DNA of 56,075 nt, filler included, from Dugesia japonica (lineage: Eukaryota): assembly GCA_001938525.1 (NCBI GenBank). It is 5 parts of 5 records of this genome, joined end to end, with 100 filler letters (N's around TTAATTAATTAA, not from the genome) between each part and the next. Parts side by side here need not be neighbours in the genome. Positions count along the whole stretch, not along the records: positions 1 to 8,635 come from MQRL01499872.1; 4 more parts are not named here. One strand, 5' to 3'. The notes beneath the pieces were generated by a model. The model saw only the letters and a program-made list of their open reading frames with translations, was not told where the DNA came from and made no database searches. A program made the translations under genes and the position numbers. This document shows, one piece after another, positions 4,945-7,145 of this stretch (positions are counted from its first letter, which is position 1; every line of letters starts with the position of its first letter).

Positions 4945-7145
4945 AAAAGACATTCGAACAATCTGTAATAGCAATAATCAATCAAAAATTGATACAATCC
5001 AAAATACAAACACAAATATTTATTCATAACAATCAACCAAGTACACGACATAACATGCAGACGCATAATGATATAGCAAGACAAAATAATAAACGCAATA
5101 CTAGCAACACACAGAAAAGTAATGGTCAATCAAACACAAACACACATACAGATAGCAATACAACAAATGTGCCTTCATCCTATACCTTTACCACAAAAAG
5201 TATCCCTAAATTTTATGATACCATTCAGAATTTTACATTTAAAGAGAAACAAACAGAACCCAGAATAGAAACATTTAACGGAGTAGCAAAAATCCTTAAT
5301 TCACTAAAGAATAACACTTTTGATAAAGACTTAATCATGATAAGATTTCAGGAAGCAAAGCGATATAATCTTCAGCAGTTAATAGGTTATATAAAGATCC
5401 CTAAGAATCCTGAAAGTGCATTGATAAAGGGGAAAAGAGTTATGAAAGCTATTCGAATGCATGTTAAAAAAACTCTTATAAAGTTCACACACAATAAAAG
5501 TGAAATAACAGTAGTTAATAACACCTCGCTAATAATTGAAGAGATAATAAATAAAGATATAAATACTATTAAAGTAGCCATACAGAATATCCCAGCAGTC
5601 TTAGCAGTAGAAATCATATATCATGATCGGATACCTATACCATTCCCGTCCTTTACCAGTATTAAAGGACATTGTACGGTTTCTTATATAGATTTGCTTA
5701 ATTATACATCATTTATAAAGTATGCAGGATTGACGAAGGAGGATATCGACCAACTTACGGTGTATATTGATATGAAAACTGTTAAAGATGTATATTTCAA
5801 CCCACAATTGATAGAGATTACTATTATGTCAAATAATGGAGCTATTTTAATGGATGAAACCCTCTGTCCAAGAGAAAGAATGAGACATTTCGAATCACAT
5901 ATCACAGGGTGTGACCAGGAGAAAAGTAGACAGTATAAAGATGCCTATCCTTTGATATTAAGAGCAAGGCAACTTCTTTATGGTAAAATATTAGTAGGTT
6001 ATAATATTGGAAAAAACTTGATTAGTCTNCATATGGATCAAAGGCACGTAATTGGCATNAGAGACCTCGCAGAGGAAAAATGGAGACGGCTATACACCCN
6101 NAANNTNAAAAAACTCAAACTCCTTAACTTAATAGAAGCAGTGTTTAAGCCATTGAAACATGAATATGTTATAAAAGATATGCTAAAGATGGCTAGAGAG
6201 ACCAAGTACGAATCAACAGCAAAAAGAGCGACATTGATCAAAATAACATATAAGCAGATATGTAGCCAACAAGAATGGAAAGACTCCTTACAGCCAGCCT
6301 TAACGAATATTATATCAAACACAGAAGGAGATCAAGATACGATGCAAGAAATTACAATAAGAGAAGTAGATAAACCGATAAGTATTAGATGGATAATGGA
6401 TTCGGAATCTGAGGAAGATATGTATACAAAAATTAAAATGGATTCAGATGATATTAAGCTAGTCAGTGACAATATTAAGTACGAGCCGTAATCGGAAGAT
6501 GAGGAGATAAGGAGACAAAGAAATGAGGAAGAAAGACAACTTGCAATCCAAGGTAAAAAGGATAAGCAGTTAGTAATCGAGAGGTGGAAGAAAGTTTCAA
6601 TACCATACTATGAGGAAAACTGTGATTTAGATGAAGGACAGCAAAACAGCAGCACTGAGTATTGGTCTGACGTAGGAGAAGGAGAAATGGAAAGATTAAA
6701 GGATCAAAGATGCAATATAGATCTTACAGAATCTGATAACGACGATGAACAGTTAGAAGATCTCACAGTAGATCAAGTTAGAGAAGATGGAGTATATGTG
6801 CCATATATTACGGATAGTGAGAGTGATGACTCAATAGGACCTGAACCTGATATATTTTTAACGGAGCCAGGGGTTAGTTGGGAAGAAACATCAAATAAAA
6901 GGAATAAGAAAAGAGGAGAATTTCAATTTCAGACAACACCGAATGCTGATATTTATTTACGATATGGGAAAAAGAGAATCCATTTGACCAAGATAGAGGA
7001 NNNNNNNNNNNNNNNNNNNNNNNNNNNNNNNNNNAATACATTATTCAACAAAGTTGCGATGACACAAGACGGTGCACAACTCACATTAGCCATAGACAAA
7101 AATAATAACAATTTATTAAGTGTGTCAATTGATAGATTAAAATAA
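4945..7145 (+). pseudogene. Accessory ORF2: protein with a REXO4/ISG20-like DEDDh 3'-5' exonuclease domain (about 5757-6260) and an acidic C-terminus; one in-frame TAA at 6489
   Basis: VYIDMKTV...ITIMSNNGAILMDETLCP...FESHITG...LLYGKILVGYNIGKNL...RDLA follows the REX4/ISG20 Exo I-II pattern. ORFs 4989-6491 and 6687-7145 share one frame and the interval between them is open. Confidence 0.8.

Follow-up and report, generated by a model that had tools for sequence, protein, structure and literature searches.

A Ty3/Gypsy retrotransposon of Dugesia japonica carries, downstream of its pol gene, an accessory gene that encodes a predicted two-domain protein, in which an exonuclease fold has lost four of its five catalytic residues, seemingly as an evolved trait, and which likely binds RNA without cutting it. 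We give this combined reading a probability of roughly 0.6. The loss looks evolved rather than the outcome of decay because relatives of the protein carry intact or similarly disarmed versions, and one element carries both side by side. The accessory-protein family is apparently undescribed. The gene lies in the first part of the window, by which we mean the whole 56,075-nucleotide stretch of DNA that was analyzed and which is AT-rich throughout (GC of 15 to 38% per kb).

A Ty3/Gypsy element with three open reading frames downstream of pol

Bases 1 to ∼8540 of the window belong to a decayed Ty3/Gypsy LTR retrotransposon, of which they form the 3′ part. Pfam matches reveal the PR-RT-RH-IN order, which is the Ty3/Gypsy arrangement. 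The pol gene is interrupted by stops and frame changes, and the window starts inside the element, such that gag, the 5′ LTR, and the 5′ end are out of view. Three open reading frames (ORFs; 4039-4815, 4944-7145, and 7348-8238) follow on the same strand, 3′ of pol. The features of the carrier element are as follows.

493-702, + strand: aspartic protease-like region of pol (Pfam gag-asp_proteas, E = 0.0025, under its cut-off)
1650-2240, + strand: reverse transcriptase, partly under N, frame broken (PF00078, E = 5e-21; 47% identity with the pol of a second element, L001, described below)
2267-2578, + strand: RNase H (PF17917, E = 1.6e-34)
2847-4004, + strand: integrase, zinc finger and core, with stops and a frame change (PF17921, E = 1e-12; PF00665, E = 5e-9)
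3954-3998, + strand: hydrophobic stretch at the integrase end (hydropathy)
4039-4815, + strand: ORF that contains a Thr-rich stretch and a hydrophobic segment (4669-4713) and has a basic tail (sequence, hydropathy)
4920-4944, + strand: pyrimidine tract and AG, splice-acceptor-like (sequence only)
7348-8238, + strand: next accessory ORF, a C3HC4 RING finger protein (PF00097, E = 2.3e-7; TRIM-type RING matches)
8531-8539, + strand: purine tract followed by TG (sequence; no second LTR in the window)

The integrase is 48% identical to that of L001. Judging from its sequence, the 8531-8539 motif is likely the polypurine tract and the start of the 3′ LTR. The ORF at 4039-4815 has no Pfam match at E < 0.1 and resembles nothing in the tail of L001; its features make it possibly the broken membrane-protein end of pol. 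Read as one stretch, 3954-4815 runs from the hydrophobic integrase end through a Thr-rich stalk and another hydrophobic segment to a basic tail. A GT-rich candidate splice donor at 3997 was dropped upon finding small insertions at this place in other copies of the element, and these insertions suggest a frame break. The sampled RNA reads (a quarter of two RNA runs) contained no splice joint; 68 reads from one run and 1 from the other matched the element, at 95% likeness or less. An acceptor-like AG also precedes the RING ORF, at 7245. Rfam had no match in window positions 1 to 12000 or in L001.

Two side observations concern this region. In two DNA runs, the summed contig depth over 4625-4850 reaches up to ∼100 times that of the nuclease ORF, and some contigs link the integrase end to this stretch, which suggests a short segment common to many more elements, perhaps a cis-signal. 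The RING ORF contains ∼230 further residues without assignment and possibly continues past its stop (8239-8514).

A predicted ISG20-like exonuclease fold in the accessory protein

The frame of the accessory ORF is open from 4836 to 6491 and, past an in-frame TAA (6489-6491), continues to 7145. Its first in-frame ATG is at 5055, and its undetermined bases are at 6030, 6059, 6100-6107, and 7002-7034. The features of the ORF, with the catalytic positions as aligned to the family, are as follows.

4944-5207, + strand: low-complexity leader of 88 codons, 55% N/T/Q/S (composition)
5208-5639, + strand: double-stranded beta-helix domain, cupin- or 2OG-Fe(II) dioxygenase-like (family profile, predicted model)
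5727-6270, + strand: DEDDh exonuclease fold, ISG20/ISG20L2(REX4)-like, in which 1 of 5 catalytic residues is present (profiles, predicted model)
5769-5777, + strand: Exo I, D-M-K (GAT ATG AAA), with the Asp kept and Lys at the Glu position (alignment)
5997-6017, + strand: Exo II, G-Y-N-I-G-K-N, with Tyr at a non-catalytic, variable position and Asn at the acidic position (alignment)
6210-6227, + strand: Exo III, with Glu at the His position (6210) and Arg at the Asp position (6225) (alignment)
6271-7145, + strand: acidic tail broken by the in-frame stop at 6489-6491, 21 to 25% D/E on both sides of the stop

An earlier reading of this DNA, made from the sequence alone (the sequence-only reading), had assigned the ORF to the REXO4/ISG20-like DEDDh exonucleases captured by a retroelement. 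Both the assignment and the capture held. Pfam had no match for the ORF, its exonuclease part, or its tail, each searched alone, and the window protein on its own reached ISG20 at only E = 0.18. The DEDDh match emerged from family profiles and a structural model, though Pfam alone was silent. An exonuclease-part profile built from the homologues without the window row scored the window protein at 92 bits, and a profile of the intact rows alone scored it at 76 bits. Combined with the window row, the family profile matched ISG20L2 at 3e-27, ISG20 at 4e-16, and plant SDN1 at 2e-13 (structures 7yw5, 1wlj, and 5z9x of the PDB, respectively).

Single-sequence fold prediction of the window protein was unusable (pLDDT of 33). 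With the family alignment, the model reached a pLDDT of 86.7 and a pTM of 0.84 and was superimposed on ISG20 with a Z score of 17.6 (rmsd of 2.4 Å, 159 residues aligned) and on ISG20L2 with a Z score of 16.2 (rmsd of 2.7, 156 aligned); the next family scored 13.7, and Exuperantia scored 10.4. On the strength of the profiles and the predicted model, the exonuclease domain is real, and its fold is ISG20/ISG20L2-like DEDDh. The D/E-rich tail described previously is likewise present, with the amendment that its in-frame stop had gone unmentioned. A protein atlas queried with the window piece, and with the homologue P0003, yielded nothing.

Four of the five catalytic residues are missing

The five catalytic positions of the window protein read D, K, N, E, and R. 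The codons reported in the sequence-only reading are as it gave them (D-M-K at Exo I; TAT at 6000 and AAC at 6015, within VGYNIGKNL; YESTAKRA, here located to 6207-6230). Its description of the catalytic residues as mostly one transition from consensus applies to the Exo I Lys and the Exo II Asn and fails elsewhere. The His of the "GH" motif is non-catalytic, with F, S, N, V, or Y in that place in 8/18 intact relatives. The one-transition pattern covers only two of the four lost residues because, in Exo III, the His position is two bases and the Asp position three bases from any consensus codon. Exo III had also been said to lack an obvious Asp, which is correct (the position holds the Arg at 6225) and incomplete, since the His is missing too. 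The suggested role in trimming or proofreading cDNA or RNA ends is ruled out for the window protein by these missing residues; it is still conceivable for the intact relatives. The other suggested role, in opposing small-RNA defence, may apply to the window protein.

The homologues comprise intact and disarmed forms

A search of 1.84 billion representatives identified 33 proteins at E ≤ 0.001: 30 that constitute one family, two exonucleases of the cellular type, and one unrelated protein. Of the 30 proteins that were looked up, the two cellular-type ones included, none has a usable database name. All five catalytic residues are present in 18 of the 30 homologue clusters; 8 clusters are disarmed (0 or 1 of 5 residues), and 4 end before Exo III. 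Excluded from these counts and from the trees were the cellular-type proteins P0023 and P0028, which are without the beta-helix domain, the unrelated P0034, and the cluster mates P0035 to P0044; P0028 was kept as the outgroup in one tree, and seven short or outgroup rows were dropped from another. PF00929 matched 15/30 homologues at E ≤ 0.01, and the intact homologues possess H-x4-D in Exo III. A word-index homologue search found no relative of the window protein, a word-index search with the family profile scored 7998 candidates and recovered a single member, one that had been identified before, and a scan of viral contigs found no relative.

All 7 full-length disarmed rows checked, the window included, retain P-R, D, G, and G-x-R-D/E as scaffold motifs, and Lys or Arg occupies the Exo I Glu position in 7 of the 9 disarmed rows, again including the window. 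The best homologue, P0002, is only ∼25% identical to the window protein and possesses the same D-x-K and G-Y-N. It is the nearest neighbor of the window row in three trees, one of them from the N-terminal domain alone, with no starred branch and with long branches meeting there. A profile of the eight disarmed rows scored the window protein at 152 bits, compared with 83 to 120 bits for 40 draws of eight intact rows, in an alignment that was built with the window row present. The net charge of the exonuclease domain does not separate disarmed from intact rows. To explain the disarmed members, the trees need two to three changes (five on the N-terminal domain alone), and a single origin is not rejected (p-AU = 0.17). 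The two domains show a weak correlation of their distances (rho = 0.17, 83/2000 permutations). The catalytic loss is very probably a family-level trait.

The Exo I Asp that the window protein keeps, together with acidic residues near Exo III in several disarmed rows, could in principle form a rearranged active site, in which case the protein would still be a nuclease. We consider this very improbable, since the Exo I Asp is gone from 7 of the 8 disarmed homologues and the substitutes differ from row to row.

Copies of the element argue against decay of an active nuclease

The sequence-only reading had offered two explanations, decay of an active nuclease in the window copy and an evolved pseudo-nuclease. 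Decay, here understood as having followed insertion, has some observations in its favor: a single transition separates two of the lost residues from consensus, G>A outnumbers every other type of difference between copies (106 places in run X1), the window copy is visibly damaged elsewhere (the pol stops and frame changes and the stop in the tail), and intact clusters account for 18/30 of the homologues. The element is multicopy, with 3151 and 2355 contigs in two runs aligning to 3800-6029, mostly 80 to 95% alike. Copies were compared over 5745-6029 in four runs from three studies (176, 178, 159, and 7 contigs, the last run being from a second organism). The Exo II Asn codon lies 7 to 14 bases from the end of this stretch; Exo III and the stop at 6489 lie outside it.

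If the Exo I Lys had arisen by decay of the window copy, a multicopy comparison would be expected to restore the Glu. Among the best 40 of 80 rows of differences, there was no first-base change in the Lys codon and no difference in the Tyr codon, and the Lys codon instead shows a silent third-base difference at 12 to 35% of depth. Elsewhere in 5745-6029, differences private to the window copy reach 91 to 100% of depth. The weakest of the best 40 of 80 rows peaks at ∼26% in its best run, from which we infer that differences beyond these 40 would be rarer than ∼26%; minority copies may thus carry other residues. Of the best 40 of 80 differences, 28 are silent, compared with the 27% expected (p = 2.5e-8), and 27 fall at third codon positions, with the qualification that these differences were selected by support, a choice that favors old differences. 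Judged by this pattern of substitution, the exonuclease part is under purifying selection.

Decay of an active nuclease in the window copy is therefore not borne out: besides the silently varying Lys codon, the two Exo III positions are two and three bases from consensus, the window protein favors the profile of the disarmed rows, a homologue as distant as P0002 has the same substitutions, and a disarmed homologue is uninterrupted in L001. We regard decay as highly improbable. An evolved pseudo-nuclease is supported by the mostly silent variation among copies and by the retention of the scaffold in the disarmed homologues.

A second Gypsy element carries disarmed and intact paralogues in tandem

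A metagenome scan with the homologue P0024 found L001, plus a weak 20-residue match (L002). L001 is the one homologue contig of the 30 clusters for which the genomic context is known; contigs of 8 to 31 kb exist for the clusters of P0005, P0025, P0027, and P0031. It begins, like the window, at about the protease, and positions 1 to 6663 form an open Gypsy pol frame of 2220 aa. The pol gene is followed by the uninterrupted gene of P0024, which is disarmed (0/5), and then by an intact paralogue (5/5; PF00929, E = 6.5e-9); the beta-helix domain is present in both. By its gene content, L001 is a second Gypsy element with the family, in which a disarmed copy is kept within an undamaged element.

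Other features of L001 were noted in passing. Past the integrase, its pol includes a second aspartic-protease-like domain, ankyrin repeats, a weak FN3-like match, and hydrophobic segments. The interval between the disarmed and intact paralogues (8368-8488) contains a pair of 43-nt direct repeats that are 93% alike, with a GC-rich core. The intact ORF has an ATG directly after an acceptor-like AG.

The tandem arrangement raises the alternative that the disarmed protein is mainly a partner or regulatory subunit of the active paralogue or a scaffold for host proteins (e.g., together with the RING protein) instead of an RNA binder. The RING ORF next to the accessory ORF in the window is compatible with such a role, as is the long acidic tail; tails of this kind are typical of protein-interaction regions. 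However, the family profiles match the window at one place only; neither the element, as far as it is visible, nor the rest of the window holds an intact paralogue, and the 5′ part of the element is out of view. We consider the partner role unlikely, while granting it some weight.

The N-terminal domain is a predicted double-stranded beta-helix

The exonuclease part had been placed behind an unrecognised N-terminal region of about 270 aa. The region can now be resolved into the low-complexity leader and ∼145 aa that are predicted to fold as a double-stranded beta-helix. A family profile built without the window row matches the latter at 26 bits (iE = 4e-9), and the region is common to 24 aligned family rows. 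In the model, where the domain was predicted as part of a longer protein, residues 3 to 143 match cupins with a Z score of 10.7 (rmsd of 2.6, 97 aligned) and 2OG-Fe(II) dioxygenases (Ofd2, ALKBH5/6/7, and prolyl hydroxylases) with Z scores of 9.0 to 9.8 (rmsd of 2.9 to 5.0, 121 to 136 aligned). At this level of modeling, cupin and dioxygenase are indistinguishable, within ∼1 Z. Matches in a viral structure library, given without aligned ranges, were to cupins, AlkB-named proteins, and plant-virus replicases, the last of which we take to hold AlkB domains. The family has no AlkB match at the sequence level.

The 2OG dioxygenase motif consists of an HxD/E...H iron triad and a 2OG-binding Arg, and the cupin metal site consists of HxH..E and a His in the second motif. 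Neither standard metal motif is found among the conserved columns of the 24 rows, which comprise only F, Y, I-P-N-x-L-K, L, H, L, T-S, and A-x-E and hence a single conserved His. The Tyr, Asn, His, and Glu are kept in disarmed and intact rows (Asn in 23/24, His in 22/24, and Glu in 20/24), and the window protein keeps all four, with one near-invariant N-terminal position altered.

This conservation across disarmed and intact rows would be expected if the beta-helix domain were the working part of the protein, in ligand or modified-base binding or in non-standard catalysis, and the exonuclease fold its structural base. The fold matches to ALKBH5/6/7 and plant-virus replicases and the active AlkB of orchid Gypsy elements (PMC9289625, in the portions available) point the same way. 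Two observations weigh against this, the absence of a conserved HxD..H or HxH..E..H metal motif from the family columns and the purifying selection measured on the exonuclease part itself, and we judge the possibility improbable.

A proposed route from captured nuclease to RNA binder

In the reading that we prefer, an ancestor of this Gypsy lineage would have captured a REX4-like exonuclease, which became fused to a beta-helix domain. Some descendants would then have lost the metal ligands and kept the scaffold, in at least one element as a duplicate beside a working copy. The Lys or Arg that replaces the Exo I Glu may contact an RNA phosphate in the metal's stead. The protein would be translated from an RNA that is spliced or starts internally, and it would hold on to the 3′ ends of RNA, thereby either shielding the element's own RNA or serving as a decoy against host trimming and small-RNA silencing. 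Precedents for disarmed DEDD folds as RNA binders are Maelstrom (PMC4408791) and PXL and Exuperantia (PMC13659232), as described in the accessible parts of these reports. By analogy with such proteins, we lean slightly toward RNA binding as the protein's job.

A more ambitious proposal is an anti-silencing kit encoded by one lineage of animal Gypsy elements and made up of an active ISG20L2-like nuclease and a dead counterpart. Each would have a cupin/AlkB-shaped domain that reads modified RNA, and the pair would trim or sequester small RNAs of the host or protect the ends of element RNA. Taken as a whole, this proposal is distinctly unlikely. If true, the kit would mirror, on the side of the transposon, Maelstrom and EXD1, which are pseudo-nucleases of the host piRNA system.

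Relationship to known systems

As far as searched, exonuclease cargo of LTR retrotransposons is in print only as the DEDDy exonuclease ORF3s of bdelloid rotifers, which are carried by the Juno and Vesta LTR retrotransposons and by Terminons (PMC5408684 and PMC6431247, in the parts available). The rotifer elements resemble the present one in having an accessory ORF with an exonuclease fold of the 3′-5′ type downstream of an LTR-element pol. The available rotifer ORF3 text also notes a DEDD to DEED change, and the acidic position of Exo II is Glu in 14/18 intact clusters here. Compared by description, however, rotifer ORF3 is an RNase D-like DEDDy protein with intact residues, whereas the window family is ISG20L2/ISG20-like DEDDh, and ORF3 as described there differs further from the window family, which has a fused beta-helix domain and disarmed members. 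The window family would represent a second, independent capture, from a different nuclease branch and with a beta-helix plus DEDDh architecture.

The window protein shares its fold and scaffold motifs with ISG20L2, ISG20, and SDN1 but is without four of the five catalytic residues, includes a beta-helix domain, and is borne by a retroelement. Like Maelstrom, Exuperantia, and the PML PXL, it keeps a DEDD fold from which catalytic residues have been lost (PMC4408791 and PMC13659232, as far as available). These three bind nucleic acid according to the same partial texts, an activity that is putative for the window protein; they are described there as host genes from other DEDD branches, while the pseudo-enzyme in the window is on the transposon side.

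Gypsy elements of Phalaenopsis also carry an accessory domain of beta-helix fold, an AlkB-like 2-ODD ORF whose product actively demethylates m6A and is close to the ALKBH proteins of plants (PMC9289625, available in part). Unlike that protein as described, the window domain has no metal motif, fits cupins no less closely than dioxygenases, and is joined to an exonuclease fold. Gypsy elements with an extended pol and accessory domains, as here, include Burro/GYPSM1 and the flatworm GAG-ENV-POL errantiviruses (PMC6431247 and PMC13524379, in the portions available), and the ankyrin repeats in L001 pol have a counterpart in Burro (PMC6431247, same portion). Section 7 of PMC6431247 lists no exonuclease for Burro/GYPSM1. 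The main text and seven supplementary files of PMC13524379 contain zero occurrences of "exonuclease" or "DEDD," and six pol motifs are not in its supplements, whose legends list no pol sequences. No beta-helix plus DEDDh protein is mentioned in the available text of PMC3985635 or PMC13524379. Among the literature matches listed, with repeat catalogues outside their scope, there was neither such a protein nor a disarmed retrotransposon DEDDh.

Intact and disarmed members coexist in the family, and a single element can carry both. The family thus offers a natural enzyme/pseudo-enzyme pair with which to ask how retrotransposons handle or evade host RNA surveillance, and few element-encoded factors that act on host RNA surveillance are known in animals.

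Other repeats in the window

Outside the element described above, three kinds of sequence were noted. Three fragmentary copies, at 12900-16100, 41100-43000, and 53100-53700 (repeat families D12, D14, and D15), were assigned by eye to another, more decayed Gypsy-like family. Degenerate tandem arrays with units of ∼20 to 21 and 31 to 32 bases and a strong strand skew are located at 35000-37300 and 44100-44830. Short ORFs resembling pieces of Tc1/mariner-type transposases, likewise recognized by eye, are found at 11092-11694, 18178-18675, 26317-26640, 38820-39242, and 48262-48570.
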